Source of the DNA: an archaeon
Lineage (GTDB): Archaea > EX4484-52 > WAPT01
DNA length: 64,000 bases
Direction of reading: 5' to 3'
Assembly: GCA_029258795.1 (NCBI GenBank)
Contig: JAPDKB010000008.1
Span: forward strand, 32,001-96,000
Made by a program: the position numbers and the translations under genes. A model generated the notes under the pieces. The model did not search any database, was not told the DNA's origin, and worked only from the letters and a program-made list of their open reading frames with translations. This document shows positions 9,708 through 51,657 of this stretch, piece by piece (the stretch's first letter is position 1; each line of letters opens with the position of its first letter).

Positions 9708-10094
9708 ATGGCGAGGTTTGGGAACATACTCAAAAAGCTCATCAAGATGGCAGAAACGGATGATGATGTGTTAGCGGTGCTGCTTTTCGGTAGTGTTGCC
9801 AGAGGAGAGAAAAATGGTAAAGACCTGGACATATGTCTTGTCTTTAAGAAGGACACGGATAAAAATAAAATATTCGAGAAAATGGTGGAATACGCTTCCA
9901 TTTCCGATATTGTGGATGTTAAAGCGTTTCAGCTTCTCCCGCTTCATATGAGAATGAGGGTGATTAGAGAAGGTAAGATTTTGCATGTTAAAAATGAGGA
10001 TTTAGTGTACGATGTTGTAATATCTACACTCAGAGAGTTCGAGGAATTCAAGTTCATCTACCATTCCTATCTGGAAGGTGTGTTGAATGGATAA
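9708..10094 (+). CDS. Minimal nucleotidyltransferase (MntA-like antitoxin)
   Basis: LFGSVARGE...DLDI motif; overlaps the HEPN gene. Confidence 0.85.
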   Translation: MARFGNILKKLIKMAETDDDVLAVLLFGSVARGEKNGKDLDICLVFKKDTDKNKIFEKMVEYASISDIVDVKAFQLLPLHMRMRVIREGKILHVKNEDLVYDVVISTLREFEEFKFIYHSYLEGVLNG

Positions 10095-10512
10095 GGAAAG
10101 GATACTCGCAAAAATAGATGAAATGGATGGATATCTGGAAGAGCTTGAAAGCATCAGACCATCAACTTTTGAAGAATATGAGAGTAGCATCGAGAAAAAG
10201 CGCGCCTGCGAAAGACTTCTTCAGCTGGCCATAGAATGCGTTATAGATGTATGCGCGATGATCGTTAAGGAGTGCAAACTTGGATTGCCTGCTGATGAAG
10301 ATGACATGTTCAGAAAGATAAGGAAAGCGGGTGTGATAAACAATGAGCTTGAGGAAAAGCTGAGAAAGATGAAGGGGTTCAGAAACATTTTGATACATCG
10401 CTACGGAGAGATAGATGATGAGCTTGTTTTTGAAAAGCTGTTCATGATTGAGGATTTCGAGAAGTTTAAGGAAGCTGTGCTCGAATTTCTTAGAAAAGGT
10501 GAGATTGAGTGA
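10087..10512 (+). CDS. HEPN/DUF86 ribonuclease (HepT-like toxin)
   Basis: ERLLQLAIE and RNILIHRY (RX4HXY). Confidence 0.9.
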   Translation: MDKERILAKIDEMDGYLEELESIRPSTFEEYESSIEKKRACERLLQLAIECVIDVCAMIVKECKLGLPADEDDMFRKIRKAGVINNELEEKLRKMKGFRNILIHRYGEIDDELVFEKLFMIEDFEKFKEAVLEFLRKGEIE

Positions 10513-33519: not shown

Positions 33520-36500
33520 ATGCAGTATGACTTCCACAAAATCGAGAAGGAGGTAAAGGAGTACTGGGAAAAGAACAAAATTCCGGAAAGGATTGCTGAC
33601 TTCAATGCCAACCTAAAGACACGTAAAAAGAAATTCTATCTGCTTGATGGACCGCCTTATGCCAACGCCCCTCCTCACGCTGGACATGCCATGACCATAG
33701 TTTTCAAGGATCTCTGGGGTAAGTTCAAGTTCATGAACGGCTATGCTGTCTGGTTCCAGCCGGGTTTTGACTGTCACGGCCTGCCGATTGAGAATATGGT
33801 TGAGAAGAAGTTTGGGATAGGATCAAAGAAGGATATAGAGAACAAGATTGGTGTTGCCAAGTTCATTCAGATGTGTAAAGAATATGCTACTCAAAACCTG
33901 AAAGAATGGATGGAATACTACAAAGATCTTGGAGCATGGAAGGGCTGGCTCACGCCTTACTTAACTTACGAGCCATACTACATAGAGAGCATATGGTGGA
34001 CCGTCAAAAAGCTTTTCGATGAAGGGTTGATGGTTAAGGGCAAGAAGCCCATACACTGGTGCCCGAGATGCCAGACATCCATTTCAGGGTATGAGGCTAC
34101 CGACTCCTACAAAAACGTTACCGACCCCTCCATTTATGTTAAGTTCAAGGTGAAGGATAGGGATAACGAGTACCTGCTCGCATGGACCACAACACCTTGG
34201 ACGCTTCCGGCTAACGTTGCGCTTGTTGTTCATCCTGATGAGACCTACGTTAAGATTGAGGTTGATGGCGAGTATTTAATTCTCGCTGAAAAACGCCTTA
34301 AGGATGTGATGGAAAGAGCTGGCATCAAGGACTACAAGGTTATTGAGAAGTTTGAGGGTAAGAAGCTGGATGGTGTGGAGTACGAGCCATTAATGCCAGA
34401 GCTTCAGACGCAGCAGGAGGCTGCCAAGAGTGGAAAAGCGCACAGAATTGTTATGTCCGTCCCTATTCTGAAGAAGGTTGTTGCCTCCAAGATAAAAGCA
34501 AAGAAAGAGGTTGAGGAGGAAGAGGAAGGAGAAGCTTTTGGTCACATGGTTACCATGGATGCCGGTACAGGCATAGTGCACTGTGCTCCCGGCCATGGAG
34601 CAGAAGACAACAAGCTTGGTGCTTATTATGGCTTGCCAGTAATCTCGCCTGTTGATGATGAGGGCAAGTTCACAAGCGAAGCTGGTTGGCTGGAAGGAAA
34701 GTTTGTGAAGGATGCGGATAAGGAAATAATAGAGCATCTTAAGCAAAAAGGTCTGCTATTCCACGCTGAAAGGATAGTTCACAGCTATCCTCTCTGCTGG
34801 AGGTGCAAAACCCCCCTCATTTACCGCACCACAGACCAATGGTTCTTCCTCATAGACCCAATAAAGGAGATGATGCTCAAATTCAATGAAGAGACAAGAT
34901 GGCTTCCTGACTTTGCAAAGGAGCGCATGAGGAACTGGGTCAAGGACGAGGCGGACTGGTGCATATCGACGCAGAGATACTGGGGCGCGCCAATCCCAAT
35001 CTGGGAGTGTAAGAACTGCGGGCACATGATCGCTGTGGGAAGCAAGAAGGAGCTTGAGGAGAAAATGGTGAACGATGTCAAGCTTGATGACCTCCACAAG
35101 CATGTTGTGGATAAGGTTGTGCTGAAATGTGAGAAGTGTGGAGGGGAGATGAAGAGAATTCCGGACATAATAAACATCTGGGTGGAGAGCGGCGTTGCTC
35201 CATGGGCTTCGCTCGGCTATCCTTATTATGATGGCGGTCTACTCAAAAAGCTGTGGCGCGTTGATCTGGTGGATGAGTCCCAGGATCAAATAAGGGGTTG
35301 GTTCCACGCCATGCTGTTCATGTCCGCTGCCACGTTCAAGGAGAGACCATATAACACCGTTTGCATGAACGGCTGGGTGCTGGATGAAAAAGGAGAGAAG
35401 ATGAGCAAGAGCTTGGGGAACGTGATTTCAGCGGAAGAGGCATTCGAGCAGCTCGGCGCTGATGTGCTCCGCTTGTACGTTTGCTACAGCACAGCTCCGT
35501 GGGAGACACATAAGTTCAGCATGAAGGAAGCAAAGGAACTCTTCCGCTTCATGAACATAATGGTCAATCTTGTCAACTTTGTGGACATGTATGGTGTAGA
35601 TATCAATGTTGATGGCGGCATGCCCAATCTCACCCGTGTTGAGGACAGATGGCTTCTTTCGAGGCTTAACTCCATAATAAGGAAGGTTGAAAGCCACATT
35701 GAAAACTTCCACTTCCATGCAGCAGCAAGAGAGCTTGTGGAGTTCGTGATGGAGGACTTCTCCCGCCTCTATCTGAAGCTGGTAAAGGAGAGGTATGATA
35801 AAAATGAGGAAAGAGAAGCGATGGATCATGTAATATCCAAGACAATCTTTGATGTGGTGAGAATGCTCGCACCCTTCTGCCCGTACATAAGCGAGTACAT
35901 CTATCTGAAGCTGTTCAAGGATGCTGTTAAGGAGGATTCAGTACACATGTTGGAGTGGCCCGTGGCTAATGAGAAGCTGATTGATGAGAAGTTGGAAAGG
36001 GAGATGGAGCTCGTTATGAAGATTGTGGAGGAACTCAATTCAATCAGGCAGAGCAAGGGCATAAGGTTGAGGTGGCCTCTTGAAGAAGTTGTGCTCTCGT
36101 CCAACGAGATCACTGCAAGGATTGGGGATGACATCAAGGAAGTCATAAAGACGCTTGCAAACGTGAAAAAGGTTGTTGTTAAGGATGTTGAGCTGAGCTA
36201 TGCGCTGAAGCCCAGATATGATGTGATAGGGCCGAAGTTTGGAGAGAAAACAAGAGAGGTTGTTGCCCTCCTGCAGAAACAAAGGCCTGAGGAGCTTTTG
36301 AACCGGCTTGAGGAAGAGGGGGCTGTAATGGTTGGTGAGTTTGAAATAACAAAAGAGATGGTGGATGTTGATGTCAAGCTTGAAAACGTGCCTGCTGGCT
36401 ATGAAGGTGGAGTTGTTGACGGCACAGCTGTGCTTCTCAAGGTTGAGATCGCGCCTGAACTGAAGGAAGAAGGGATAGCCAGAGAGTTCATAAGAAGAGT

Positions 36501-36705
36501 GCAGCTGGCAAGGAAGGAACTTGGCTTAAGGTTTGAGGATGAGGCAAAGCTGCTTGTCGATGGCATGTCTCCTTTCATCAACAAGTGGAAGGATTTGATT
36601 GAGGAAGAGACGAACACGAAAATTGTTGTTAGCGAGCTGAAAGAAGAGAGTGCTGAGAAGTTTGAGTTTGAAGAGGTCAAGCTTATTTTCAGGGTGGAAA
36701 AATAG
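33520..36705 (+). CDS. ileS: Isoleucyl-tRNA synthetase
   Basis: DGPPYAN..PHAGH, GFDCHGLP, WTTTPWTLP, GTGIVH.APGHG, DWCIS.QRYWG, DQIRGWF, KMSKS. Confidence 0.97.
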   Translation: MQYDFHKIEKEVKEYWEKNKIPERIADFNANLKTRKKKFYLLDGPPYANAPPHAGHAMTIVFKDLWGKFKFMNGYAVWFQPGFDCHGLPIENMVEKKFGIGSKKDIENKIGVAKFIQMCKEYATQNLKEWMEYYKDLGAWKGWLTPYLTYEPYYIESIWWTVKKLFDEGLMVKGKKPIHWCPRCQTSISGYEATDSYKNVTDPSIYVKFKVKDRDNEYLLAWTTTPWTLPANVALVVHPDETYVKIEVDGEYLILAEKRLKDVMERAGIKDYKVIEKFEGKKLDGVEYEPLMPELQTQQEAAKSGKAHRIVMSVPILKKVVASKIKAKKEVEEEEEGEAFGHMVTMDAGTGIVHCAPGHGAEDNKLGAYYGLPVISPVDDEGKFTSEAGWLEGKFVKDADKEIIEHLKQKGLLFHAERIVHSYPLCWRCKTPLIYRTTDQWFFLIDPIKEMMLKFNEETRWLPDFAKERMRNWVKDEADWCISTQRYWGAPIPIWECKNCGHMIAVGSKKELEEKMVNDVKLDDLHKHVVDKVVLKCEKCGGEMKRIPDIINIWVESGVAPWASLGYPYYDGGLLKKLWRVDLVDESQDQIRGWFHAMLFMSAATFKERPYNTVCMNGWVLDEKGEKMSKSLGNVISAEEAFEQLGADVLRLYVCYSTAPWETHKFSMKEAKELFRFMNIMVNLVNFVDMYGVDINVDGGMPNLTRVEDRWLLSRLNSIIRKVESHIENFHFHAAARELVEFVMEDFSRLYLKLVKERYDKNEEREAMDHVISKTIFDVVRMLAPFCPYISEYIYLKLFKDAVKEDSVHMLEWPVANEKLIDEKLEREMELVMKIVEELNSIRQSKGIRLRWPLEEVVLSSNEITARIGDDIKEVIKTLANVKKVVVKDVELSYALKPRYDVIGPKFGEKTREVVALLQKQRPEELLNRLEEEGAVMVGEFEITKEMVDVDVKLENVPAGYEGGVVDGTAVLLKVEIAPELKEEGIAREFIRRVQLARKELGLRFEDEAKLLVDGMSPFINKWKDLIEEETNTKIVVSELKEESAEKFEFEEVKLIFRVEK

Positions 36706-36712
36706 GGGTAAA

Positions 36713-36928
36713 TTAGCACACAGCAACATTTATGCCCAGCACATCCAAAAAGCTAACTATGATACTTGCGATATCACAAGCTATTCCCTGAATCTTGTCC
36801 AAAAACCCTCCTTCTTTTGTCAGGAAAATGAAAATAATCATACCTACAAACAGTGCCAGCATTATCAATCCGAACTCAGTTAATCCAAGCTCAATCCCCT
36901 TTCGTCTCATGGTGAGTTGATGGTTCAT
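36713..36928 (-). CDS. Small pilin-like protein (class III signal peptide)
   Basis: RRKG|IELGL followed by hydrophobic helix. Confidence 0.6.
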   Translation of the reverse strand: MNHQLTMRRKGIELGLTEFGLIMLALFVGMIIFIFLTKEGGFLDKIQGIACDIASIIVSFLDVLGINVAVC

Positions 36929-36941
36929 GCTAATTCTACCT

Positions 36942-37049
36942 CTAAGGTCTTCCTAAATAATTGAAAGCTGTAGCAAAGAGCACATATAACAGCAATAGCC
37001 CGAGTAAAAGCATTAACAGAAGGCTGACCGAAAGGCCTGCTTTTTTCAT
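36942..37049 (-). CDS. Very small pilin-like/hydrophobic peptide (35 aa)
   Basis: MKKAG|LSVSLLLMLLLGLLLL; manual translation. Confidence 0.4.
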   Translation of the reverse strand: MKKAGLSVSLLLMLLLGLLLLYVLFATAFNYLGRP

Positions 37050-37093
37050 CCTTACCACAACATATTTAAGGGAGGACAACAGATTTATAAGTT

Positions 37094-37288
37094 ATGTACT
37101 GCTCTTTAAGGAAAAGAAAAGGAGCTTCATATATAGAAATCATATTTTTGGTGTTATTGCTTGCATTCATCACATTTTTGTTTGTGGCTTTGTTCCGGCA
37201 CTGGGACATTAGCCTGGATGAAAAGGTTAAAAATGCTTTTGACACTGTTATGGCGAAAGCTCAGGAAAAGTTCGGGGTGGTGTTTTAA
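37094..37288 (+). CDS. Small pilin-like protein
   Basis: KRKG|ASYIE (E at +5) followed by hydrophobic helix. Confidence 0.7.
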   Translation: MYCSLRKRKGASYIEIIFLVLLLAFITFLFVALFRHWDISLDEKVKNAFDTVMAKAQEKFGVVF

Positions 37289-37480
37289 ATGGGAAGGAAG
37301 GGTATGGATAAAGTGGTGTGGATAGTTCTGAGTGTGTTATTAGCATTTGTTGTTGTTTATTTAGCTATCAAAATAACGGGTGGTAGCTTTTTTGGGTTTG
37401 AAAGCCTAGTACATAGTGGGCTCGAAGAATCAAACCAAACAATTAATGAAAGCATAGAAAATATAACAAAAGGTTGGTGA
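37289..37480 (+). CDS. Small pilin-like protein
   Basis: RKG|MDKVVW followed by hydrophobic helix. Confidence 0.7.
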   Translation: MGRKGMDKVVWIVLSVLLAFVVVYLAIKITGGSFFGFESLVHSGLEESNQTINESIENITKGW

Positions 37481-37486
37481 TGTGTT

Positions 37487-37993
37487 ATGAGACCGCTGAA
37501 AAAAGGTTTCTCATTTTCTATATCCACCATAGCAGTGATTTTTCTCGTAGTGATAGTGATAGCCATCATTATTAAGTTCTATGGGGGAAGTATAGTTCCC
37601 CATCTCAATACTACTAAACTCAATATAGGTAGACTTGGTAATGTTACTACCACTATCGTTAATGAATCAACTTCCTCTTATCTCAACCCCTCAGGTGGCT
37701 CATCCAGTAGCTCATCTTATACTTTGACTCTATCGAATATGGGTGCTGGAAGCGGTAATAATTGTACCATAAACCTCAATGTCACTGATTCAAACAACAA
37801 GCCAGTTCCGAGTATAACCGTTACCGCACGGTATGACACCACATCTTCGAGCTGTACAAGCCAGAATGATGGCTCCTGTAAGATAGAAATTCCAAAACCT
37901 AGCCAAGAAGTAAACGTCTCTATCACTTGTTCTGGTTGCAATTCATTATGCATTAAAACAAACCCCTCATGTGGTAATCTGGGTGGGTGTTAA
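37487..37993 (+). CDS. Pilin-like protein with Ser linker and Ig-like Cys-containing domain
   Basis: KKG|FSFSI followed by hydrophobic helix; VTDSNNKPV Ig-like motif; many N-x-S/T sequons. Confidence 0.75.
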   Translation: MRPLKKGFSFSISTIAVIFLVVIVIAIIIKFYGGSIVPHLNTTKLNIGRLGNVTTTIVNESTSSYLNPSGGSSSSSSYTLTLSNMGAGSGNNCTINLNVTDSNNKPVPSITVTARYDTTSSSCTSQNDGSCKIEIPKPSQEVNVSITCSGCNSLCIKTNPSCGNLGGC

Positions 37994-38157
37994 TGAAAAT
38001 TACCAAAAAAAGTAAGGGTTATTCTTGGCTGGAGATAATATTTTTTGTGCTGTTGCTTTCTGCATTGATATTTATTCTCATGAAATTCGGTAAAGGAGCG
38101 ATAGATAAAATATTGGGGCTTGCTGACCTCGGTTGGGAGAAAGGAGGGTTGAAATGA
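37993..38157 (+). CDS. Small pilin-like protein (54 aa)
   Basis: KSKG|YSWLE (E at +5) followed by hydrophobic helix; TAATG and ATGA overlaps with neighbours; manual translation. Confidence 0.7.
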   Translation: MKITKKSKGYSWLEIIFFVLLLSALIFILMKFGKGAIDKILGLADLGWEKGGLK

Positions 38158-38396
38158 ACAGGAAAGGACTGGTAGGAAGTCAGATCATGCTCATCATCTA
38201 CATAGTTATTTTTATAATCTGTTTAGCTCTTGCTTACATAATTCTTAATAAAATAGGCGTGCCCATTGTTGATACTTTGAAGAGGCAGTGGGGCTGGGTT
38301 AGCACAGTGGTCAAGACAGTGAGCTTTATTGGAAATGCCATTGATACTGTGATGAACATAGCTGGCAAGATATGGGGTTTTCTCACAGGCGGATAA
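38154..38396 (+). CDS. Small pilin-like protein
   Basis: NRKG|LVGSQ followed by hydrophobic helix. Confidence 0.7.
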   Translation: MNRKGLVGSQIMLIIYIVIFIICLALAYIILNKIGVPIVDTLKRQWGWVSTVVKTVSFIGNAIDTVMNIAGKIWGFLTGG

Positions 38397-38419
38397 GAAA
38401 TTAAAATTTCCAAATTGAG

Positions 38420-38824
38420 GTGGAAAGTATGGATGAGAAAGCGAGGTCGATAGAGGTTTCTGGAAATAGCATAATCATTACTCTATCTCCATCGTTGTAT
38501 TCCAAAAACGCGGTAATGCGGGCCGCTTACAGGATGCTGGGTAATTGCAGCGCCAGGGTGCTGGGAGATGGCATAAATTCATTATCCGTTGAGCTGAGAG
38601 TGCTTGATGATGATGGGAGGGTGGACAAAGAGGATTTGGTTGACGCTTTTTTCGCTGAGCTGCTTCAGGCGGAGATGGAAGAGATTAACATGCGCAAATT
38701 CGGAGATGTGAGGAAAATGCTTCTTGAACTTGCCATAAGAGGGCTTGCAGCAGGAAAAAATGCAAATGTGGGTCAAAATCAGGATAATAAAGGTGAGGTG
38801 AATGAGGAAGAAAGAATTGTTTAG
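38420..38824 (+). CDS. HxsD-like accessory protein of His-Xaa-Ser-type radical SAM systems
   Basis: LYSKNAVMRAAY...F.AELL...VRKMLL pattern; next to paired radical SAM genes. Confidence 0.7.
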   Translation: MESMDEKARSIEVSGNSIIITLSPSLYSKNAVMRAAYRMLGNCSARVLGDGINSLSVELRVLDDDGRVDKEDLVDAFFAELLQAEMEEINMRKFGDVRKMLLELAIRGLAAGKNANVGQNQDNKGEVNEEERIV

Positions 38825-39092
38825 AAAACTCAGATCTCTTGTCAAACCACCTCAACTCAATGATGATGGGGCATTGAATGTGCTCACACTTCTTGCAATT
38901 ATAAGTGCGCTCCCTCTCCTTTCCAAGCTCGCTCACTCAGTTGTAACTCATGAATGCGTCACCAACAAACAGGAATGGAGTGAGGTGGAGGGCGAGTACA
39001 ATACTTGGCTTCATAATGAGTGGAGCAACTGGATAGAGTGGGCTGATTGGAAGGAATGGTGTGAGTGGGGAAAGTGGGGAAACGGTGGTTAG
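38802..39092 (+). CDS. Putative RiPP precursor with (Trp-X-X)7 core
   Basis: SD GAGGTGA; basic N-terminus, hydrophobic segment, then WSN WIE WAD WKE WCE WGK WGN. Confidence 0.85.
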   Translation: MRKKELFRKLRSLVKPPQLNDDGALNVLTLLAIISALPLLSKLAHSVVTHECVTNKQEWSEVEGEYNTWLHNEWSNWIEWADWKEWCEWGKWGNGG

Positions 39093-39096
39093 ACAG

Positions 39097-40008
39097 ATGA
39101 GACTCATGCTCAAGAAGGCTTACTGCGTGTTCGGATATCAGTGCAACAATAACTGCAGGATATGCGCGGTCAGCTCGCAGGAGAGAGCGAGAAAGGAGCG
39201 GATCGGCACGGAAGAGCTCGTAAACTTTCTTATAGGGCTCCCACGCGAAATAAGGATTGTGGAGATTTCTGGAGGGGAGCCAACAATAAGAAGTGATTTT
39301 TTCACCGTTCTTGAAAAGGTAAGCAGTGAAAAACCCCATCTGAAATATCATCTTCTCACAAACGGAAGAATGCTGTCTTCAATCACCTTTGCGGAAAAAC
39401 TTGCAGACCTCCCTGTGGATTTCATAATTACGGCTCTTCACTCCGCCACACCGGAGAGACATGACTGGATGACCAGAGCTGAAGGAAGTTACATGCAGAC
39501 CATACAGGGTGTGAGAAACGCTTTAGATATGGGGTTTCGAGTCTCCCTAAAAACAATTGTGAATAAATCTAACTACAGAGAGCTGGAAAATATAGCAACT
39601 TTTGTCTGCTCTAGGTTTGATGACATCGATTTCTTTTCTTTTCACGCGCTTGACCTGACGGGAAATGCTCTTAAACACGCTTCCGAAGTTGCCGTAAGGA
39701 TGAGTGAAACCATCGATAATCTTCTTAGGGCTGTGACCATCCTTGACTCCTCGGGAATTAGAGTCAGGATATATGGATACCCTTACTGCATGGTGTCCGA
39801 AGACCTCTGGAAATATATTGCACCACAACCAAAACTGATTTACGGATATAAATCTCCATCACTGGAAATTGTAAACCAGAAATTTGATGATAACTACGGT
39901 CTGCTCGATGTTTGCGAGGGCTGCTCGCTCAGATACAAGTGCTCGGGATTGTGGTATACTTATGTCGAGTTTTTCGGCAAAGATGAGATTGTGCCAGTAG
40001 GAGGGTGA
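39097..40008 (+). CDS. Radical SAM enzyme, HxsC-like
   Basis: CNNNCRIC, SGGEPT, LTNGR, PYC, C-terminal CEGC...C. Confidence 0.88.
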   Translation: MRLMLKKAYCVFGYQCNNNCRICAVSSQERARKERIGTEELVNFLIGLPREIRIVEISGGEPTIRSDFFTVLEKVSSEKPHLKYHLLTNGRMLSSITFAEKLADLPVDFIITALHSATPERHDWMTRAEGSYMQTIQGVRNALDMGFRVSLKTIVNKSNYRELENIATFVCSRFDDIDFFSFHALDLTGNALKHASEVAVRMSETIDNLLRAVTILDSSGIRVRIYGYPYCMVSEDLWKYIAPQPKLIYGYKSPSLEIVNQKFDDNYGLLDVCEGCSLRYKCSGLWYTYVEFFGKDEIVPVGG

Positions 40009-41387
40009 AGGACGTGTACCTACTCAACGATGTACTCGAAGATAAATTGGACGGGAACAGAACTCTTCTCACCACGAGGTATGGAAGCTGGGTCATACTT
40101 ACAGAGGATGATGTAAAGGCTCTGAGGTCCGGCAAGGCTGATGAGGAACTTCTTCAGAAGCTGGAAGAGGCGGGGATCATACTCACCGAGAGGAACATCA
40201 GATCAGAACTGGAAAAAATCGTCAGGAGGTTTGGATACCTTTACAATATGCCGTTTCTCAACGTTCAGATCAATCTGACCCTGAGGTGCAATCTTTTATG
40301 CAAGTATTGTCACGCAAACTCTAGTCCAAGCTCAAGGCTGGAGATGGACAGAGATATCCTGCTTGATGTCGTAAGATTCCTTGAGCGCCTGCCGAAAACC
40401 TACATTTCCCTCGAATTTCAGGGTGGAGAACCCTTTCTCAAGTTTGACCTAATGGAGGAGCTCGTCGAGAGGGTGCGGAATGAGGTCAAGGATAAAAAGG
40501 TGGTCGAGACTGTGGTGATTTCCAACGGCACCGTTATCGATAAGGATATAGCAAGGTGGGTTGCTAAAAATAACGTTTCTGTTTCCGTGTCGCTTGACGG
40601 TCCGAAGGAAATGCACGATTCTCAGCGCGTTTATCCAAATGGCAAGGGAACTTACGAAGATGTTTTGCATGCCATCACACTGCTGCGGGATGCCGGGGGT
40701 TTTCCAACTTCCACCGCGACCATCACAAAGAACACCGTTAAGCTCGGAGGTGCGGAAAGGGTGATTGAGGAGTATGTTAAGAGGGGGTTTCCATTCATCT
40801 TTTATAGACCCATCATGGATGCGGGGCGTGGGGAGGATAACGAGGAGCTTGCACTGAGAGCTGAGGAGTTCTTCGAGTTTGTTAAGGGAAGCATTGAGAA
40901 GGTTGTGCAGCTGAAGCGTGAGGGTGTTGTTTTTAGGGATAAGTTTGTCGAAAAATTCCTTCAGAATATTTTTGGAAAGGGTACGCGTTCCTATTCATGT
41001 CTGCGCGATGTGTGTGGGGCAGGAATTACGCAGCTCGTGGTGGCTCCGGATGGTTGGCTGTATCCGTGTGATGTTATGAAGGTCTTGCCGGAATTCCGGG
41101 TCGGAAGGCTCGAGAACCAATACGAGGAAGTTATGATGAATGTGCTCAACAGCATGATGGTTCTGCCGGACATCTCCGCTGAGTGTCCTTCCTGTCCCTA
41201 CATAGCGTTCTGCGGTTTCTGCAAGCGGTGGAACTACGGAATATCCCGCTCACTGCTGCCGTACCACTTCCTGAGCGAGGACTGCAAATTCAAAAAAATG
41301 TTTTTCAAGTACATATTTCAGAATCTGAAATTCTTCCGTAAAAATGTGGACTGCTTTGTGGTTGAGGAGGGAGTGAGGTATGACTAG
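40005..41387 (+). CDS. Radical SAM/SPASM peptide maturase, HxsB-like
   Basis: N-terminal extension (LLTTRYGSW), CNLLCKYCH, EFQGGEP, SLDGP..MHD, CGAG...YPCD, CPSC...CGFC. Confidence 0.9.
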   Translation: MKDVYLLNDVLEDKLDGNRTLLTTRYGSWVILTEDDVKALRSGKADEELLQKLEEAGIILTERNIRSELEKIVRRFGYLYNMPFLNVQINLTLRCNLLCKYCHANSSPSSRLEMDRDILLDVVRFLERLPKTYISLEFQGGEPFLKFDLMEELVERVRNEVKDKKVVETVVISNGTVIDKDIARWVAKNNVSVSVSLDGPKEMHDSQRVYPNGKGTYEDVLHAITLLRDAGGFPTSTATITKNTVKLGGAERVIEEYVKRGFPFIFYRPIMDAGRGEDNEELALRAEEFFEFVKGSIEKVVQLKREGVVFRDKFVEKFLQNIFGKGTRSYSCLRDVCGAGITQLVVAPDGWLYPCDVMKVLPEFRVGRLENQYEEVMMNVLNSMMVLPDISAECPSCPYIAFCGFCKRWNYGISRSLLPYHFLSEDCKFKKMFFKYIFQNLKFFRKNVDCFVVEEGVRYD

Positions 41388-42174
41388 CTGCTTTCGCTAT
41401 TTTTATCTGGTTTCCGCCCTCATCATGATTATCCTTGCGTTTCACATAACCAAAAGTTTTGTTCTCACATCCGCTCTTGTGTTCGCTTCCTTTTTTGGAG
41501 CAACCCTTCTTGCCATCGGGAAGGAATATGGATGGAGTGTTGTCTTTTCTGCATTTCACACAGCTATGAAAACACTCTCTCTTCTTATGCTTTCATTCAG
41601 TTTGCTGTTTTCCCTCTGCAAACAGGCGGTGGATATTAATTCCTTTTTATTGTTCATCCTGCTACTTTTCTCTTCGGTGAGTGCAGGAGCGATTGTGAAG
41701 CGTGCAGAAAATGTGTTGAGGTTCTGGCATGCGCTGCTACTTCTTGGATTTGCGCTTTCCGTTTACTTCCACTTTTACTTCATTTTTCTCAAAATTTCGG
41801 CCTTGCTCTTCATGATTTACGCAACCCCTTCCCTTACAACCCTACAGGTTGAGGTCTCTGAAAAGATTGTGGGAGAGTTCCCCGCAGAGATTGTGAAGGT
41901 CAGCAAGAAAGGTGTGAAAAAGGAAAGAATTTCTGTTTCTAAGATCAGGCTGGCACGCGCGGCCTTTTGCATCAGTAAGGGAGAGGTTATTGCCCAGCCC
42001 TTCAGAAGGCTGGATGATGCAGCGGTGAAGCTGTTGAAGAAAGCAGGGGTTAAGGAAATAAGGATTCAGAGGAAGGTGCTCCCGCAAAATATCTTTTTTC
42101 TTTCGATTCTCCTGTTCTTCCTTCTTATCCTTCTGGTAGCTCTACTGAATACGTTCCGAATGACTGTGGTGTGA
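41380..42174 (+). CDS. Multi-pass membrane protein; C-terminus resembles archaeal prepilin peptidase C-terminal domain
   Basis: About five TM segments, soluble loop GEFPAE...LLKKAGVKEIRI, final TM; no clear GxGD. Confidence 0.6.
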   Translation: MTSCFRYFYLVSALIMIILAFHITKSFVLTSALVFASFFGATLLAIGKEYGWSVVFSAFHTAMKTLSLLMLSFSLLFSLCKQAVDINSFLLFILLLFSSVSAGAIVKRAENVLRFWHALLLLGFALSVYFHFYFIFLKISALLFMIYATPSLTTLQVEVSEKIVGEFPAEIVKVSKKGVKKERISVSKIRLARAAFCISKGEVIAQPFRRLDDAAVKLLKKAGVKEIRIQRKVLPQNIFFLSILLFFLLILLVALLNTFRMTVV

Positions 42175-44353
42175 TGGCTGTATTGGAAATTATATCGTCA
42201 GGCACACACGTCTCTGTTCCTCCGTTGCATTTGTTGTCATCAACATTCACGTTCACGATGAATCGCAGAACTACTGGAGTCCACTTATTCTGCGAGACAT
42301 CGAAGAGCTTGTATTTGGAATCGATAATTTCAACCAGTATTTTCAGATCCTTGAAGATGTAACGGTGGTAGTATTTCATAGTGCATTTGTGCCAATAATT
42401 CCATGCGATTTTGCACTTCCACTTTGGACAGCAATATTTATAACAATCCACATGAGGGGGTGGTTTCTGGATTAGCACCTGCCTTTCCACATGAATCAGG
42501 TTCTTATCTGTCCCTTCAATCTCCAGACCGCATCCAGAAGTGATGGTTTCGGTTACGGTTTTTTTTGCAAGCGTGTCTTTGTTTTCCACGAGTTCATTGA
42601 TTAACTCGTCTATTCGTGAAATGTAAGAATTATAGCTGCTATTTACGGTTAAGCAGAAGTCATCTATACTAGTTGTGTGTATACTTGAACATGCTGATTG
42701 AATGGAGTTGCACAAATCGTAAATATAGGGGGAATTGCAATATTCTTCAAGTTTTGGTGTGGTATCGTGAAACACAGAGCTAGGCAAATGGCCTGAACAA
42801 ATTACATTTACTCCCTCTTTTAGCGAATTACACCTAGAAATAAGATCTGAGCAATCTTCGTCCGTGACTGTTCCGGCTGCGCATATCGTGTCTATTTCTC
42901 TTCCCAGATCTTCCCTATCCGGGTTATAACCCATGAAATCGTTTATTGCGTTAAGTGTGTCATCATCCGTTCTATCAAGGGTGATGCTTCCCGCTTTACT
43001 CGGTGTTGCACTGTCACAGCACGGCTTCTTGTTGTCGTTCACACTCTCCCAAACATGCTTATCATCAAGATAGATGAGCTTCCATCCTATTCCTTCTGCA
43101 GAGCTCGCATTGAGATCGGCTTCAAGCTCGCTGAGAGCGCTTGTTATGACATTTTCAAAATCTGCTTCACCATATGTTGGTGTCTTATCCTCAGGACAAT
43201 CGTTACAAGTTAAAGGTCTGCAAACTTCCTCGCTTTCCTCTGTATAGTAATCCTGTAGCTTTTCATTGGACTTTTCAAATATCTTCCTTATCAACCATTC
43301 CTCAATGTTATCCACAAAGGTGTTGCCATAGTTCACCATCAATCCAAGCCTGGTGGAAACGTTCGTTTCGGTAAACATGTTGGAATGCAGCATGACCGTG
43401 ACCTTACCCTCTCTAGAAACTCTCGTTACGTTCATCCCTTCACTCATCCACACACTTCCGTGGATAGTATTTGTTGATGGGTCAAAAGTCACGTTGGGTT
43501 TTGATCCTTTGAAAGTCATACCATACATGTTGGTGGGTGTCCCTCTATAGTACTGTTCAAGATACCTTTCCATTATTTCCTGAATCATATCTCTACCACA
43601 ACCTACAGCGGAAAACTTGTTGGAGTCCTTATGCTTGTATATGGTCGCCACGATTCCGCGAAGCTTAACAGTATTGTTTCTGGATGCTTTGATTTCTATT
43701 CGATTTCCTTCTATAGAATCCCCTTTCAGGAAGTAAACACCCGTGTGATTTGCATTCATTAGTATTGTGCCTCCTGATTTTATAGTCACTGTCGCGTTTT
43801 TGAGGAAGTAGAGAGTTAGCATAACCTCTCCGACTCTGAACCCGGGATCCACGCTGAACTCTATAGTGGTGGGCACTCTTCCAATCCACCCATTGAAATC
43901 CTTGAAATATGAGATGGGTTTGTAAACCTGCATCCCTGTTCCCTCCGCTTGAACCCAGTAGAGCACATACTCTCCATCAACATCTTCTATCCTCATACAA
44001 CCCCTATCCACACCCTCAAAATTCACTCTCATGTTCAGAACGTACTTTCGATTGCCGCTTTCATAAGTTATACCGTTTTCAGCTATGAGCTTGGACGTTA
44101 TCATTCCATGCGATGCGTAGTCAAGAACTGTTTTCATCATCGCAAATATTAGCGCTGGCTGTTCCTGACTTTCCTTTATCATCGATATCTCGAATTTCCC
44201 TTTCTCTATGAAATTTCTCAGCACTTCACCCTCTATTATTTGCATCGCCTCAAAAGTTCTGGTTAGCATAACCCAAGAGGCAAAAGCTACCCACACCATC
44301 AGGAGTAACGCTACTGCCAAAACCGATGCAAATCCCTTATCCCTATCTTTCAT
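42125..44353 (-). CDS. Large Cys-rich extracellular protein with class III-like signal peptide (minor pilin/adhesin)
   Basis: DKG|FASVL followed by hydrophobic helix; many Cys. Confidence 0.75.
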   Translation of the reverse strand: MKDRDKGFASVLAVALLLMVWVAFASWVMLTRTFEAMQIIEGEVLRNFIEKGKFEISMIKESQEQPALIFAMMKTVLDYASHGMITSKLIAENGITYESGNRKYVLNMRVNFEGVDRGCMRIEDVDGEYVLYWVQAEGTGMQVYKPISYFKDFNGWIGRVPTTIEFSVDPGFRVGEVMLTLYFLKNATVTIKSGGTILMNANHTGVYFLKGDSIEGNRIEIKASRNNTVKLRGIVATIYKHKDSNKFSAVGCGRDMIQEIMERYLEQYYRGTPTNMYGMTFKGSKPNVTFDPSTNTIHGSVWMSEGMNVTRVSREGKVTVMLHSNMFTETNVSTRLGLMVNYGNTFVDNIEEWLIRKIFEKSNEKLQDYYTEESEEVCRPLTCNDCPEDKTPTYGEADFENVITSALSELEADLNASSAEGIGWKLIYLDDKHVWESVNDNKKPCCDSATPSKAGSITLDRTDDDTLNAINDFMGYNPDREDLGREIDTICAAGTVTDEDCSDLISRCNSLKEGVNVICSGHLPSSVFHDTTPKLEEYCNSPYIYDLCNSIQSACSSIHTTSIDDFCLTVNSSYNSYISRIDELINELVENKDTLAKKTVTETITSGCGLEIEGTDKNLIHVERQVLIQKPPPHVDCYKYCCPKWKCKIAWNYWHKCTMKYYHRYIFKDLKILVEIIDSKYKLFDVSQNKWTPVVLRFIVNVNVDDNKCNGGTETCVPDDIISNTAITPQSFGTYSVELPEG

Positions 44354-45042
44354 TTGAACACCTCTGCTGTTGCAATCCCTTCAGGTAACTCTTTGTTATT
44401 GGCATTAACAAATAAGAGTGTGTAATTTACTGCGGGATAATATTCTTCAGATGGTGTAGGGATAAACACTTCCTCCTTGAAAAGATACTTACCCCCAACA
44501 CACTTACCAACATCGTAAGGGTAACGGAGATGGTGCTGCCATGTAGGTGTATTCACAAACTTGTTATAAAAAACTCTCTGGGGAAAGTGTCTCTCCCCAC
44601 TGCCAACTATAGAGGGTAGAGAGGGTGGGGGTGTGCATTCATCCGGCCCTTGCGGAGATGGGAGCATTAGCTTTACTGTGTTGTTCAGATTGACTTTACC
44701 CTTAACACCACCATAATCAATATACACTTCACTCCATCCAGGAATGAAATGATTAACTTGAGATAAATCGTGCTGCGCTCCGTAAGTGTAAATGCCCAGC
44801 AGTTCATCAATCTGGAGTGTGCTGCGCTCACCCGAGTCAAGTGTTGGTTTTACATTGAAGTATGTTAAATAGGTGGATGCGTTTCTCTCCGTAGCGTAAT
44901 ACTGAATTACAGCCCCGATTGACTTGAAATTCTTCAGCCACGGCATGAAAATGGAGATGACTAGTGTTAATGTTATCAGGAGCACGAATACAGGTAGCTC
45001 CAATCCAAGCGCCTTATTTCTGTATTTTTTAAACATCGTCAC
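44350..45042 (-). CDS. Pilin-like protein
   Basis: NKA|LGLEL followed by hydrophobic helix; overlaps neighbours. Confidence 0.7.
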   Translation of the reverse strand: MTMFKKYRNKALGLELPVFVLLITLTLVISIFMPWLKNFKSIGAVIQYYATERNASTYLTYFNVKPTLDSGERSTLQIDELLGIYTYGAQHDLSQVNHFIPGWSEVYIDYGGVKGKVNLNNTVKLMLPSPQGPDECTPPPSLPSIVGSGERHFPQRVFYNKFVNTPTWQHHLRYPYDVGKCVGGKYLFKEEVFIPTPSEEYYPAVNYTLLFVNANNKELPEGIATAEVFK

Positions 45043-45518
45043 CGCCCTTCAAGAGTTACGTTCAGGTATGTGAATTCCACGATTACTGGATATCCGTCAT
45101 CTGTGGATAGATGATACTTCATGGTAGCGTTTAGTTTTTTCCCTGCCACGTTTTTGAAGGTTTTTCTGGAAAGTACATTATTAAAGTCTGGAGTGTAGAT
45201 TGTTATGTTGAGAATGTATTCAATATCATCTCCAAGACAGGGTAGTGGTGCGCCATCGGGTGTGCTTTCTATAAACGTTCGGTTTAAAATGAACCACCTT
45301 CTATTGTTTAGAGAGTCGTTCGCAAGCAGGCAGCTATCGGTGATTATCTTGTTGGCGTAAGCTTCCATTAATCTGGCTCTGGCTAGCTCATCTATCGTTT
45401 TTGCGTTCATACCGGATTCAGCTTTATATACTAAGAGAGCTGCTGATGCGATTATGATGAGCACCATGGCACTAAATACCTGGGTGTATGGGAGCCCTCC
45501 TTTCATTGCTTTCAACAT
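45039..45518 (-). CDS. Pilin-like protein
   Basis: MKG|GLPYTQ followed by hydrophobic helix. Confidence 0.7.
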   Translation of the reverse strand: MLKAMKGGLPYTQVFSAMVLIIIASAALLVYKAESGMNAKTIDELARARLMEAYANKIITDSCLLANDSLNNRRWFILNRTFIESTPDGAPLPCLGDDIEYILNITIYTPDFNNVLSRKTFKNVAGKKLNATMKYHLSTDDGYPVIVEFTYLNVTLEGR

Positions 45519-45997
45519 ATATTCTCACCTATATTACAGCAGGATTTATTCGATGCATCGCAGATCATTATATATGGAGTGCAGTTCAAAATCTTCTTGA
45601 CCACGCACAACTCTTCAGCATTGGTTACTGCGGAGCTAACCACATTGGATATGTTGTGACGAATATGATAGGTTATGTTCCTTGAAGGGGTGTGAAGCAC
45701 AACCACCAACTTGGAATCTGTCAAATTGACTGTAAATTTTGGGGTTATTGATGTGTATATACTGTATCCTTGTTCCGAAGAGGAAATTTCCAAGAGGAGT
45801 GCGTAGATGGTGGAAGCTGTGTTTTTGGCTATGATTCTCGAATCCATAAGTATTTCTCTGTAAGAATTCAAGTAATATGATGCGACCAAGAACGCAATAA
45901 TTACCATTATGCCCGTAACTACTAACATGGTCTGCGTCTCGTCCTCCATTGATAGAAATTTGTGTTTCAACCCATATAAAGCTTGAGAAGTAGGCAT
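45512..45997 (-). CDS. Membrane-anchored pilin-like protein
   Basis: N-terminal TM, C-terminal Cys cluster; start uncertain. Confidence 0.6.
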   Translation of the reverse strand: MPTSQALYGLKHKFLSMEDETQTMLVVTGIMVIIAFLVASYYLNSYREILMDSRIIAKNTASTIYALLLEISSSEQGYSIYTSITPKFTVNLTDSKLVVVLHTPSRNITYHIRHNISNVVSSAVTNAEELCVVKKILNCTPYIMICDASNKSCCNIGENIC

Positions 45998-46273: not shown

Positions 46274-46561
46274 TCACTCCTTCGCCAGAACTATGGTAAT
46301 GGAAGAGACATTCACTTCCTGTCCGTTCTCTGATTTCAATGTGTCGGTTGCGATGCTGATGTCCTTCACTTTGACATCGGGGATGAACCTGTTCCTCACT
46401 ATCTCCGCTACATCCACTGCCCTGCTTATCGCTTTACCTCTCGCCTTTATCACCACTTCCTTGTTTCCTTTCTCGTTGAACTGAGTTACCACAGCTAGCA
46501 CATAGCTCATGGCTGGCTTGTTACCCACAAGCACTGCATTGTCTTCCTGCGCCATCTTCAT
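46274..46561 (-). CDS. albA: DNA/RNA-binding protein Alba
   Basis: [28 protein letters not shown]. Confidence 0.97.
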
Positions 46562-49730: not shown

Positions 49731-51557
49731 TTAATCAACCAGCACCCTCAGATTGCCAAGTGCAACGGCCTGCAGTACTTTCTTGCCGGCATCGCTCTTC
49801 TTTTTGACCCTTATCTGCCCTCTCTTGCCTACAGTTGCAGAAAAGAGAAACTCCTCGCCCTTGTAAACATCAACGTTCTTGCCGACCAGCTTTCTGTCCA
49901 CCTCGATGATAACCGAGCCGGAAGCTTCCCTCACCCTGAAGGGTATGGCTTTTTTCAACGTGTCAACTATCGGCTCGACAGAAAGCCTTATGCCAACGAG
50001 CTCCTCCAGCTTGGCTATGTTCCTGCCCTCCTTACCAATAACTTTCGGCACATCCTCCTTCTTCACCCTCAGTACAGCTCTGTTCGGTCCGACTATCTCA
50101 ACGCTGAAGTCCTTTATGTAGCGCTTCAGAATTTGAGTGAGCCGCTCCTCAGCAAGCTTGGCTATGGTCGATTCCTTAGCTTCCCGGACCTTCATCACCA
50201 CCGTCTGCTCTCCGTAGGTGTAAATCTCGTACTCAAGCTTGCCCGTCTCAAAATCTATGACCTCCACTATTGGCCTCGCAAGGTCCTCAGCGGTCATGCC
50301 AGAAGGCACGCGCACATTCAAGTCAAGCACGTAAACCTTCTCTATCCTTCCGTTCTTCACGAAAATTATCGTGTCCACTATATGCGGAATCAAGCCCAGC
50401 TCAACTCTTTGGATGAAACGCTGCACCGCATCTATTGGCTGGGTGGCATGAACCACACCCACCATCCCAACTCCCGCTAATCTCATATCCGCAAAAACCT
50501 TGAAATCGTGGGTGGTGCGCAGCTCATCATAAATGGTGTAGTCGGGCCTCACAAGCAGAAGTATGTCTGAGGTTTTGGCCATGTCTCCTTCAAGGGGAGC
50601 GTATTGAGTTATCTCTGCGCTGACCTGCAAATCTCTCGGCTGCTCCATGGTTTTGACTATCTTGCCCTTGGACGCGTAGAATTCAGCGAGAGCCTGAGCA
50701 AGCGTGGTTTTTCCATGACCGGGAGGGCCGGCTATCAGTATGCCCTCAGCCCTCTCTTCCAGCCTTTTCTTCAGCTTGTCCGAGAGCTTGTAGTCCTCAA
50801 GCGTGACCTTCAGAATCGGCCTAACCAGCGTTATCTCCATCGCTTCAGAGAATGGTGGGCGTGTTATCGCTATCCTGTAGGAGCCAAGCTGCACAACGGT
50901 TGCGCCCTTCCTGCTTATCTCCACCATGGCCTTTTCGTCCATTCTAGCGCGTTCCATTATCTCTCTCGCAAACTCCTCCAGCATCTCTCTGGTCAAGACC
51001 ACATCATCCACATCCACCAGCTTGAAAGCTCCAGGCTTTCCTCTCTTTGCCTTTGGTCTGCACCCTTCCTTGAGGTGAAGAGACATCGTGTCCTTCGTGA
51101 TCCACCTCTCTATTGATAGCTTTTCCGGCATCTCGTGCTCCACATATATGATCTCTATACCCAGAGCTTCAGCACCCTTGGCTTGGATCATATCGCATGT
51201 TATGAGCACACCACCCATCTCTTTGGCAACGTCTCTTATGAGCGCGTCTATCCTCCCGCTCCTCGCAAGCTGAATCTCCTCAAGCGTGGGCTTTCTTCCT
51301 GCCTCTTTAAACTCGATCCCCCTCTTTTCACATTCCTCCCTTATCATCTTGAGCTCCTCAAGCCCCTCTATCCCTATCTCTCTTCCCCTGTTGGCCTGAT
51401 TTTCAAGCTCAGAAATCACGAATTCAGGAACAACTATGATGTCGTTCTTCTTTATTCTTCCTTCTTCCATCAACCTTCTTACCACTCCAGCGATTATGGC
51501 TGAAGTGTCAGGTACATACACTTTTCCTTTTGTTTTGCTTTTCGTTTTGCTTCCCAT
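49731..51557 (-). CDS. PIN-domain ATPase with KH domain (PINA family)
   Basis: VPDTS PIN domain, GPPGHGKT, YDELR, IGKEG KH motif. Confidence 0.93.
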   Translation of the reverse strand: MGSKTKSKTKGKVYVPDTSAIIAGVVRRLMEEGRIKKNDIIVVPEFVISELENQANRGREIGIEGLEELKMIREECEKRGIEFKEAGRKPTLEEIQLARSGRIDALIRDVAKEMGGVLITCDMIQAKGAEALGIEIIYVEHEMPEKLSIERWITKDTMSLHLKEGCRPKAKRGKPGAFKLVDVDDVVLTREMLEEFAREIMERARMDEKAMVEISRKGATVVQLGSYRIAITRPPFSEAMEITLVRPILKVTLEDYKLSDKLKKRLEERAEGILIAGPPGHGKTTLAQALAEFYASKGKIVKTMEQPRDLQVSAEITQYAPLEGDMAKTSDILLLVRPDYTIYDELRTTHDFKVFADMRLAGVGMVGVVHATQPIDAVQRFIQRVELGLIPHIVDTIIFVKNGRIEKVYVLDLNVRVPSGMTAEDLARPIVEVIDFETGKLEYEIYTYGEQTVVMKVREAKESTIAKLAEERLTQILKRYIKDFSVEIVGPNRAVLRVKKEDVPKVIGKEGRNIAKLEELVGIRLSVEPIVDTLKKAIPFRVREASGSVIIEVDRKLVGKNVDVYKGEEFLFSATVGKRGQIRVKKKSDAGKKVLQAVALGNLRVLVD

Positions 51558-51657
51558 TTTCAATTCACCAGAACATTCAATTCTCTACCACTTTTAAAAA
51601 AGTTGTGGGAAAAAGAAAAAAAGCTCCCTGCTGCTGCGCTTCTTCTTTCAAGCTGGC

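Follow-up and report, generated by a model that had tools for sequence, protein, structure and literature searches.

A Trp-repeat precursor and an Hxs-like radical SAM cassette beside pilin-like genes in a DPANN archaeon

Bacterial HXS is the closest characterised system to the locus described here, a five-gene cassette that encodes a Trp-repeat precursor peptide together with putative radical S-adenosylmethionine (SAM) maturases and that lies among pilin-like genes of an archaeon. The locus belongs to a 64,000-nucleotide stretch of DNA (GenBank assembly GCA_029258795.1, contig JAPDKB010000008.1, positions 32,001 to 96,000) that we call the window, and positions are numbered within it unless another source is named. 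In bacteria, HxsA carries His-x-Ser repeats and a signal peptide, HxsB, HxsC and HxsD assist in its processing and modification, and the exported protein blocks the entry of phage DNA (PMC13128918, main text). The same main text places 99.7% of HXS systems in Pseudomonadota, and the word "archaea" is absent from it.

As described in the main text of PMC13705601, archaeal type IV filaments can have a dedicated second class III signal peptidase (EpdA for the Epd pilus), bindosome binding proteins are non-pilin cargo with prepilin-type signals, and DPANN archaea rarely keep their filament genes in one locus. The terms "SAM" and "Hxs" are absent from the main text of two archaeal surveys, and a literature search that left supplements aside found nothing on Hxs in archaea or on a link between prepilin peptidases and either Hxs or ribosomally made, post-translationally modified peptides (RiPPs).

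The host is a small-genome, symbiont-type DPANN archaeon (1.17 Mb, 1,168,407 bp, 96% complete). We found that its cassette resembles HXS in its maturases and that the cassette type is joined, in all 15 mapped loci, to a gene for a large pilin-like protein, which supports a link between the two that is not due to chance. The reading that we prefer, with a probability of about 0.5, is that the cassette produces an exported or membrane-anchored, radical-SAM-modified Trp-repeat surface effector that works with, or guards, a pilin-like adhesin module.

The Trp-repeat cassette and its large pilin-like neighbour

The cassette and the gene that converges on it are as follows:

38420..38824, + strand, HxsD-like small protein (GTG start at 38420, alternative ATG at 38429; TIGR03976, E 5e-8)
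38802..39092, + strand, 96-aa precursor (leader and core architecture from alignment)
39061..40008, + strand, HxsC-like radical SAM protein (probable ATG at 39100; TIGR03977; PF04055, 74.3 bits)
40005..41387, + strand, HxsB-like radical SAM/SPASM protein (TIGR03978; PF04055; weak SPASM match)
41380..42174, + strand, 264-aa polytopic membrane protein (homologous to the post-catalytic two thirds of long paralogs of the A24 prepilin peptidases)
42125..44353, - strand, 742-aa modular pilin-like protein, called Big below (DKG then a hydrophobic stretch; AlphaFold2 model and family search)

The five cassette genes lie in this order with overlaps of 23, 4 and 8 nt among them, the last of which couples the membrane-protein gene translationally to the HxsB-like gene. 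The HxsB, HxsC and HxsD families are the best NCBIfam matches of three of the proteins: the HxsB-like protein matched TIGR03978 at 265.5 bits (cut-off 370), the HxsC-like protein TIGR03977 at 177.4 bits (cut-off 267.9) and the HxsD-like protein TIGR03976 at 33.2 bits (cut-off 50). Cyclophane and Trp cross-linking maturases were among the weaker NCBIfam matches of the HxsB-like protein, and the HxsD of a sister cassette passes TIGR03976 at 51.2 bits.

For comparison we used 42 species genomes of one DPANN phylum, all of one order, in which 31 loci were mapped. An HxsB-like gene was found in 27 of 41 genomes, and the mapped loci fall into two cassette types, a W-type and a His-x-Ser type. A W-type cassette combines a Trp-repeat precursor with HxsC, HxsB and the membrane protein; HxsD is usually present as well, and in some cases a U32-family gene.

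We found that the membrane-protein gene is directly adjoined, in convergent orientation, by a Big homolog of 600-1100 aa in 15 of the 15 mapped W-type loci. These are the loci in which the contig continues, and they come from 14 genomes of at least five families; four further W-type loci agree by coordinates. The sequence-only reading of the window had placed RiPP genes inside a pilin cluster, and the association of maturases with pilin-like genes thus holds in related genomes. In the window the two genes overlap by 50 nt at their 3′ ends (42125-42174), and in the relatives these ends overlap or lie at most 45 nt apart, leaving therefore no room for separate terminators. The outer flank of the cassette varies by family: it is the isoleucyl-tRNA synthetase (IleRS) gene with small pilins in the window, and a thiolase gene, Nop5 or the TATA-binding protein (TBP) region elsewhere. 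At locus L074 the membrane protein stays beside Big though it is no longer downstream of HxsB.

The Big family is found in 29 of the 42 genomes, including all 20 genomes that have the membrane protein (by our tally). Beyond Big, operons of other families encode a 211-267-aa protein, a 159-401-aa protein and a homolog of the window's 161-aa protein, and they often add a second protein of 600-650 aa and small pilin-like open reading frames (ORFs). Cassette presence differs within two genera at the same site beside Big: genome G009 has Nop5, cassette and Big where G014 has Nop5 followed by Big, and G036 and G038 differ likewise. The small-pilin array beside IleRS is also present in another family without the W-type cassette. 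Because cassette-free relatives share these neighbourhoods, the pilin-like locus appears to be older and self-sufficient, and the cassette an accessory kept by Big.

Several observations concern the cassettes of relatives. In one family, and in one genome besides, the HxsC gene encodes a fused double protein of 587-611 aa with two radical SAM domains (L033:7492-9255, L034:10645-12411, L073:391-2154 and L068:6780-8615); at 292.5 bits this form exceeds the cut-off of TIGR03977, and the mapped stretch is without an HxsD gene in three of these four loci, HxsD being present in L068. A Peptidase_U32-family gene recurs within both cassette types and is absent from the cassette of the window (L031:6815-7873, L075:1020-2069, L076:6060-7109, L081:845-1894, L037:11822-12829, L083:4218-5198, L132:40-198 and L135:7-711). 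The L037 copy matched PF01136 at E 3.6e-10, and the remaining copies were assigned by BLAST to two reference copies. This gene could encode a leader protease or a second modifying enzyme.

The precursor leader and the prepilin-peptidase connection

The 96-aa precursor consists of a basic leader helix, Gly23, a 17-residue hydrophobic segment, the residues A-H-S, Cys52, seven consecutive W-x-x triads and a GNGG end. It has no family match in Pfam or NCBIfam, including the HxsA models, at E <= 0.1, and its core has no H-x-S run. Its N-terminus had been described as charged and ending in LNDDG before a hydrophobic stretch; the sequence reads so, with the 17-residue stretch following directly.

We aligned 13 W-type precursors with six others of the phylum, five of which have His-x-Ser cores and one a Thr/Cys-rich core. 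The leaders share one order of elements, namely a basic amphipathic stretch, an acidic/Gly hinge, a hydrophobic segment and a small-residue motif; W-type precursors add a conserved Cys after this motif, and a linker and the repeat core follow. The hinge Gly is the sole invariant leader residue among the W-type precursors (13/13), so that the proposed junction between Gly and a hydrophobic segment is kept in the homologs. Such a Gly at position -1 would be required by a prepilin peptidase. The leaders of the His-x-Ser precursors match the NCBIfam HxsA3 and HxsA4 models, below the cut-offs, and the W-type leaders align with them, which is why we regard the leader as characteristic of the family of such Hxs substrates. 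In a search of 185,579 species genomes, the hinge motif, taken from an eight-sequence alignment, was found at 12 loci, all in this lineage; a Bifidobacteriaceae match (E 7e-4 over 28 residues) was discounted as dubious.

The hydrophobic segment counts 17-19 residues with its internal Asn, and its longest uncharged run averages 16. Compared with 56 pilin-like N-termini from related loci, whose hydrophobic stretch has a median of 21 residues, the segment is richer in Gly, Ala and Ser (42% vs 22%) and lower in hydropathy (1.89 vs 2.47). After the segment, all 19 aligned precursors have an [AV]-x-[AST] motif of the signal peptidase I type. The features of a Sec-type signal are all present (n-region, h-region, small residues at -3 and -1, and a signal peptidase I in the genome, TIGR02228, 111.9 bits), with a basic n-region that is unusually long (23-45 residues). 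On these sequence properties the segment looks more like a cleavable signal or a weak anchor than like a filament-forming helix. We also considered a lipobox at Cys52 and rejected it, as T, S, E, N, L, R, C or P precede it and no lipobox pattern is seen, and a Tat signal was rejected because the twin-arginine motif is absent.

The repeat cores of the W-type precursors show three kinds of periodicity, W-x-x (as in the window), W-x and WWDHx. In the 13 W-type precursors a spacing of three was seen 44 times, with N, D or E as the third residue in 33 of the 44. With such a motif and this class of enzyme both present, cyclophane-type cross-links on the aromatic-x-x motif would, by analogy, be the likely chemistry. 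A third kind of precursor was seen in genome G033 (L069:1326-1700, - strand), where its neighbours are an HxsD gene and a long A24 paralog. The basic leader is as elsewhere, the hinge reads GEKG, and Thr/Cys-rich repeats make up the core in place of Trp or His-x-Ser.

The phylum's His-x-Ser cassettes contain HxsD, a second HxsD-like gene, HxsB, a precursor and several HxsC. They also carry a second, longer A24 paralog of 350-430 aa. Most genomes of the phylum have one A24 of about 300 aa, and those with a His-x-Ser cassette have two or three. The long paralog passes PF01478 (27-28 bits, cut-off 26.5) and keeps the D and GD motifs, and one of two scanned copies (L038) passes PF06819. Hxs genes are on the same contig in nine of the 12 long-paralog loci, the other three being on contigs of 3-5 kb, and three of four precursors that adjoin the paralog have K-G at -2/-1. 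The genome of the window has one A24 (35.5 bits, above the cut-off), at G000:C3:97188-97556 in a 317-aa frame, about 1.2 kb past the end of the window (65188-65556 in window numbering).

The cassette membrane protein itself belongs to this family relation. Its homologous part starts after the catalytic region and comprises transmembrane helices, the Arc_PepC domain and the last transmembrane helix. In hhalign comparisons it aligned with the long A24 paralogs over 223 columns (98.7%, E 4e-16) and with the housekeeping A24 over 76 columns, in the C-terminal domain only (94.6%, E 6.5e-8). This was resolved by splitting the housekeeping A24 from the long paralogs, as a mixed alignment had matched the C-terminal domain only. 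Both catalytic Asp motifs are missing, and no Asp is conserved among 15 homologs of the membrane protein; it is therefore not a peptidase, and its candidacy as an active prepilin peptidase was rejected. The window protein has no Pfam match at E <= 0.1, PF01478 and PF06819 included; among its homologs the L031 protein passes PF06819 (38.3 bits, cut-off 23.4) and the L032 protein matches weakly (17.6 bits). We read the membrane protein, from this alignment, as a putative pseudo-peptidase kept for binding or docking of the precursor.

A predicted complex of membrane protein and precursor scored 0.32, compared with 0.00 for the best of three controls, and so supports docking weakly; passes in this range are wrong more often than not. 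Contact agreement between runs was at least 59% and the partner's predicted local distance difference test (pLDDT) score at least 48. The mark is reached by 116 of 157 solved complexes and two of 215 mismatched pairs; passes at or below 0.60 include only 18 of the 157 solved complexes and both of the passing mismatches. A Protein Data Bank sequence search with profiles of the membrane protein and of the A24 paralogs gave nothing significant (best E 0.091 and 0.046). The last amphipathic stretch and transmembrane helix of the long paralogs (C-terminal alignment positions 307-364) have a weak, non-significant likeness to Sec61 gamma/SecE (E 0.046-0.16), and the Sec61 gamma match at E 0.046 was treated as noise.

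The flanking pilin-like genes

Sixteen tightly packed genes lie between IleRS (33520-36705) and Alba (46274-46561): two small - strand ORFs, five small + strand ORFs, the five-gene cassette and a four-gene - strand operon of 742, 230, 159 and 161 codons that converges on the cassette. Alba, TBP, HerA and Hyp maturation genes form the neighbourhood. Apart from Big, the pilin-like genes are:

36713..36928, - strand, 71-aa pilin-like protein, RRKG then hydrophobic (motif; 70% identity over 64 aa in two same-genus genomes)
36942..37079, - strand, 45-aa pilin-like ORF, KKAG then hydrophobic (likely start at internal Met 37049; 65% over 29 aa, weakly conserved)
37094..37288, + strand, 64-aa pilin-like protein, RKG then ASYIE, first of the + strand array (motif; 53-57% identity in the same genus)
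37289..37480, + strand, 63-aa pilin-like protein, RKG (motif; 50% identity in the same genus)
37487..37993, + strand, 168-aa pilin-like protein with a weak Ig-like/CarboxypepD_reg-like C-terminal domain (motif; 34-35% identity in the same genus)
37987..38157, + strand, 56-aa pilin-like protein, SKG then YSWLE (motif; 56-57% identity in the same genus)
38133..38396, + strand, 87-aa pilin-like protein, RKG, stopping 23 nt short of the HxsD-like gene (motif; conserved in the same genus)
44350..45042, - strand, 230-aa pilin-like protein, NKA then LGLE (motif; 53-55% identity in the same genus)
45039..45518, - strand, 159-aa pilin-like protein, MKG (motif; conserved in the same genus)
45512..45997, - strand, 161-aa protein, probably 145 aa from a start at 45949 (hydrophobic N-terminal helix; no K/R-G in this genus)

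The literature motif for a class III signal, [KR][GA] and a hydrophobic stretch of about 20 residues, was applied as [KR][GA] at the end of a short charged stretch followed by at least 15 uncharged residues. Ten of the 11 ORFs that flank the cassette within 36713-45997 have the motif. A crude genome-wide screen gave 124 ORFs, many of them surely spurious, and hence 0.99 expected per 9,285 bp; the 10 found here have a Poisson probability of about 1e-7 (about 1e-5 corrected for 126 windows), and the next densest stretches of that size in the genome hold six. The pilin-like surroundings claimed by the sequence-only reading are borne out by these counts, as are its coordinates for the five co-oriented, coupled ORFs that end 23 nt before the HxsD-like gene.

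These five ORFs overlap or abut one another. The small ORFs are 35-70% identical to their counterparts in two same-genus genomes, whose IleRS is about 76% identical, and because they are conserved as proteins we take them to be genuine genes, the 45-aa ORF alone being doubtful. The C-terminal domain of the 168-aa protein rests below threshold (PF13620, 23.4 bits against a cut-off of 32.3), as do all its Pfam matches. Counterparts of the 230-aa protein by position, 211-267 aa long, come after Big in other families. In the ESM Atlas the look-alikes of the 159-aa protein are DPANN proteins at 0.95, and the nearest Pfam family, DUF7287 at 0.91, is a lead only. Homologs of the 161-aa protein were found in four other families, with KKG or MKG present in two.

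Two spacers were inspected. The 44-nt divergent spacer 37050-37093 has two TATA-like boxes, which are placed as would be expected for leaderless transcripts both ways. The spacer 38397-38428 has a ribosome-binding-like GAGGTGG ahead of the ATG at 38429 and no T run. In the relatives, loci L038 and L111 (genomes G038 and G031) share IleRS, two - strand and several + strand small pilin-like ORFs with window positions 33520-38396, and G038 has a His-x-Ser cassette on the opposite side of IleRS.

Structural models were made for two proteins of the right-hand operon. The AlphaFold2 model of Big (pLDDT 75.3) has a 74-residue N-terminal helix (residues 8-81) followed by β-rich domains, and Foldseek returned low-scoring partial matches to carbohydrate-binding-module and jelly-roll folds (best E 5e-4). 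The family is narrow, with 43 representatives at E <= 1e-10 among 1.84 billion. The model of the 161-aa protein (pLDDT 82.8) has a 56-residue N-terminal helix (residues 2-57) and seven strands in a "lollipop" build. In a VIA-wide search, 10 of its 17 top chains were type IV pilins or pseudopilins with a best Z of 5.1, a common value, and Foldseek gave no match for this model at E <= 0.001. The two models favour a pilin-type build and the structure searches hint at one; the 742-aa protein would be a modular pilin-like protein that is probably adhesive.

Elsewhere in the window, positions 9702-10512 hold a nucleotidyltransferase/HepT-like (MNT-HEPN type) toxin-antitoxin pair (PF18765 and PF01934), and 49731-51563 (- strand) encodes a PIN-domain protein of 610 aa whose middle region is NTPase-like. 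The latter is no pilus ATPase, its PF00437 match being weak (24.2 bits) and due to the NTPase part.

A candidate surface effector, its rivals and its relatives

Taken together, the region may be read as a cell-surface module of two coupled parts. One part would be the ancestral proteins with class III signals, seven small ones at the left and, at the right, the four-gene operon led by Big, a likely adhesin; in between would lie the accessory part, a form of the HXS radical-SAM system that is specific to this lineage. The precursor would be made in the cytoplasm, where HxsD-, HxsB- and HxsC-like proteins may bind its basic N-terminal helix and the radical-SAM pair may modify the C-terminal W-x-(N/D/E) triads, plausibly into three-residue cyclophane-type cross-links. 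By its Gly hinge and hydrophobic segment it would then enter the membrane with the leader inside and the Trp-rich part outside, probably docked by the cassette membrane protein, a putative non-catalytic descendant of the Hxs-dedicated A24 paralog. Processing could consist of a leader cut at Gly23 by the single A24, a signal cut after A-H-S47 by signal peptidase I, or both, and the Trp ladder would end on or just outside the membrane beside the pilin-like adhesin apparatus. There it could form an envelope barrier to viruses, by analogy with bacterial HXS, or be an accessory to attachment. We lean slightly to the defence-like role, because close relatives differ in carrying the cassette.

A number of findings weigh against this surface-effector reading. 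All Hxs matches of the window proteins are below the NCBIfam cut-offs, and PADLOC returned only generic viperin-like radical-SAM (pVip) matches for the two maturases; the defence role is, moreover, pure analogy. None of the 16 cluster proteins matched a pilin family in Pfam, or a pilin or class III signal family in NCBIfam, at E <= 0.1, and the fold similarities are weak (template modelling score at most 0.11 on the query for Big, Z at most 5.1 for the 161-aa protein). Neither the cluster nor any of the mapped related loci contains a gene for a pilus ATPase or platform protein; the genome was not searched for a platform protein, and its three strong T2SSE-type ATPases all lie outside the cluster. 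This absence fits the scattered filament genes of DPANN archaea (PMC13705601, main text). The precursor departs from canonical class III signals: at -2 it has D, its counterparts in the same genus have E, and the other W-type members have T preceded by K at -3; its segment, too, is short and rich in Gly and Ala. In the His-x-Ser precursors the Gly is succeeded by polar or charged residues. No catalytic peptidase is part of the W-type cassette, the sole A24 is on the cluster's contig, about 19 kb downstream, the A24 paralogs of sister cassettes could serve other neighbouring proteins, and the complex score falls in the unreliable range given above. Finally, the comparative counts are not independent, as all come from 42 related genomes of one phylum. 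In genome G017, Big directly follows HxsB and the membrane-protein gene is on another contig, and Big operons exist without the cassette in at least seven genomes (by tally; four loci were inspected), so the pilin module does not need the cassette.

Some of these findings bear on how the precursor leaves the cell. It had been proposed to be membrane-anchored or pilin-like itself, and of this the Gly-hydrophobic junction and the family tie to prepilin peptidases stand, while the short Gly/Ala-rich segment, the lack of K/R at -2 and the [AV]-x-[AST] motif (19/19) do not agree with a pilin. If the precursor were a true prepilin-type substrate, cut between Gly23 and Ala24 and built into a type IV filament with the Trp ladder along or at the tip of the pilus, one would understand the invariant Gly (13/13), the A24 in the genome together with its paralogs in sister cassettes and its derivative in this one, and the conserved adjacency to pilin-like genes; archaeal class III signals are reported on non-pilin cargo in type IV filament-type structures such as the bindosome (PMC13705601, main text). 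The segment of 17-19 residues with its composition and hydropathy (against a median of 21 residues in the neighbours), the modelled pilin-like neighbours with N-terminal helices of 56-74 residues, the residues around the site and the lack of an ATPase or platform gene in any mapped locus all speak against it, and we consider a true filament subunit unlikely. Display on a pilus, filament stiffening and aromatic stacking of the Trp peptide are, for us, speculation.

Alternatively, the hydrophobic segment may be an ordinary Sec signal behind a long RiPP leader: the peptide would be cut after A-H-S47 and freely secreted as an antimicrobial, signal or host-interaction factor, the pilin link reflecting co-regulation or shared inheritance. 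The basic n-region, the 17-19-residue Gly/Ala-rich h-region, the motif that follows in 19 of 19 precursors and the signal peptidase I of the genome agree with this, as does bacterial HxsA, which has a signal peptide and is exported (PMC13128918, main text), and the match of sister leaders to HxsA3/A4 makes the leader a family trait rather than a pilin trait. Left unexplained is why the Gly is invariant, why sister cassettes have dedicated A24 paralogs, why a membrane protein derived from A24 is coupled to HxsB by an 8-nt overlap, and why the adjacency to Big persists through rearrangements; we hold free secretion to be a serious alternative that is nevertheless doubtful. The whole association might instead be a historical accident, in which a mobile Hxs-like cassette landed once beside an ancestral pilin locus and was inherited without functional link. 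That the cassette is an insertion/deletion difference between close relatives, that Big operons function without it in at least seven genomes and that one phylum supplies all the data would fit such an event. The junction of membrane protein and Big is, however, kept in 15 of 15 loci from at least five families while the other flank changes, it survives at L074 away from HxsB, its 3′ ends overlap or lie within 45 nt, and every genome with the membrane protein also has Big (20/20). We therefore regard an accident as very unlikely, and return to the surface effector coupled to the adhesin module as the best explanation.

New here are the long A24 paralog of the sister cassettes and, as its alignment suggests, the membrane protein of the window as the paralog's non-catalytic derivative. 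This is the first genomic link that we found between prepilin-type signal peptidases and peptide-maturation cassettes, and it offers a candidate new class of leader peptidases with a derived pseudo-peptidase. It also extends the HXS principle, a radical-SAM-matured repeat protein at the envelope, from Pseudomonadota to archaea and from a His to a Trp repeat. DPANN archaea live attached to hosts and depend on surface structures, and a modified Trp ladder whose gene lies near that of a probable adhesin-pilin is a candidate for attachment or antiviral defence. Going further, this DPANN lineage may have recruited prepilin peptidases as dedicated leader-processing and docking proteins for radical-SAM repeat peptides, catalytic in the His-x-Ser type and as a pseudo-enzyme in the Trp type, with the Trp peptide handed to a pilin-like adhesin apparatus and displayed at the surface as a barrier to virus entry or an element of host attachment. 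We offer this extended scenario tentatively and expect it to be wrong in some part more readily than right as a whole. If true, it would be a first for archaea as hosts of an HXS-type system and for RiPP-like products as users of a type IV filament pathway.

Like bacterial HXS, the locus pairs radical SAM enzymes of the HxsB and HxsC lineages with a small HxsD-like protein, and the substrate combines a tripeptide repeat with a hydrophobic N-terminal segment, here a putative export signal. Unlike it, the repeat is W-x-x (W-x or WWDHx in relatives) and not H-x-S, the substrate is 96 aa long and lacks a peptidoglycan-binding domain, the gene order is D-A-C-B with a fifth, membrane-protein gene instead of D-B-C-A, the host is an archaeon, the genomic company is pilin-like and all scores lie under the NCBIfam cut-offs. 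With the HxsA3/HxsA4-type cassettes of the same phylum (NF038309, NF038313 and NF038315) it shares the basic helix, the acidic/Gly hinge, the Gly/Ala-rich segment and A-x-A, as well as HxsB, HxsC and HxsD homologs and an A24-related membrane protein in the cluster; these sister cassettes have cores of H-x-S, add another HxsD-like gene, keep the long A24 catalytically intact and lack Big as a neighbour.

The EpdA and bindosome cases share with the present loci a second A24 dedicated to a subset of substrates, prepilin-type signals (putative in the present precursors) on non-pilin proteins and pilin genes scattered away from ATPase and platform genes. In the present loci, unlike in those cases, the A24 paralog belongs to a peptide-maturation cassette and, in the W-type, is without its catalytic domain; for those cases neither radical SAM nor peptide-maturation genes are described, and "SAM" does not occur in the main text (PMC13705601). 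Radical SAM cyclophane RiPPs, triceptides among them, have in common with the locus a SPASM-type maturase and a repeated aromatic-x-x motif (PMC11499958 and PMC11851443). The locus differs from triceptides in its two maturases with HxsD, in the export or anchor segment of its precursor and in its surface-gene company.

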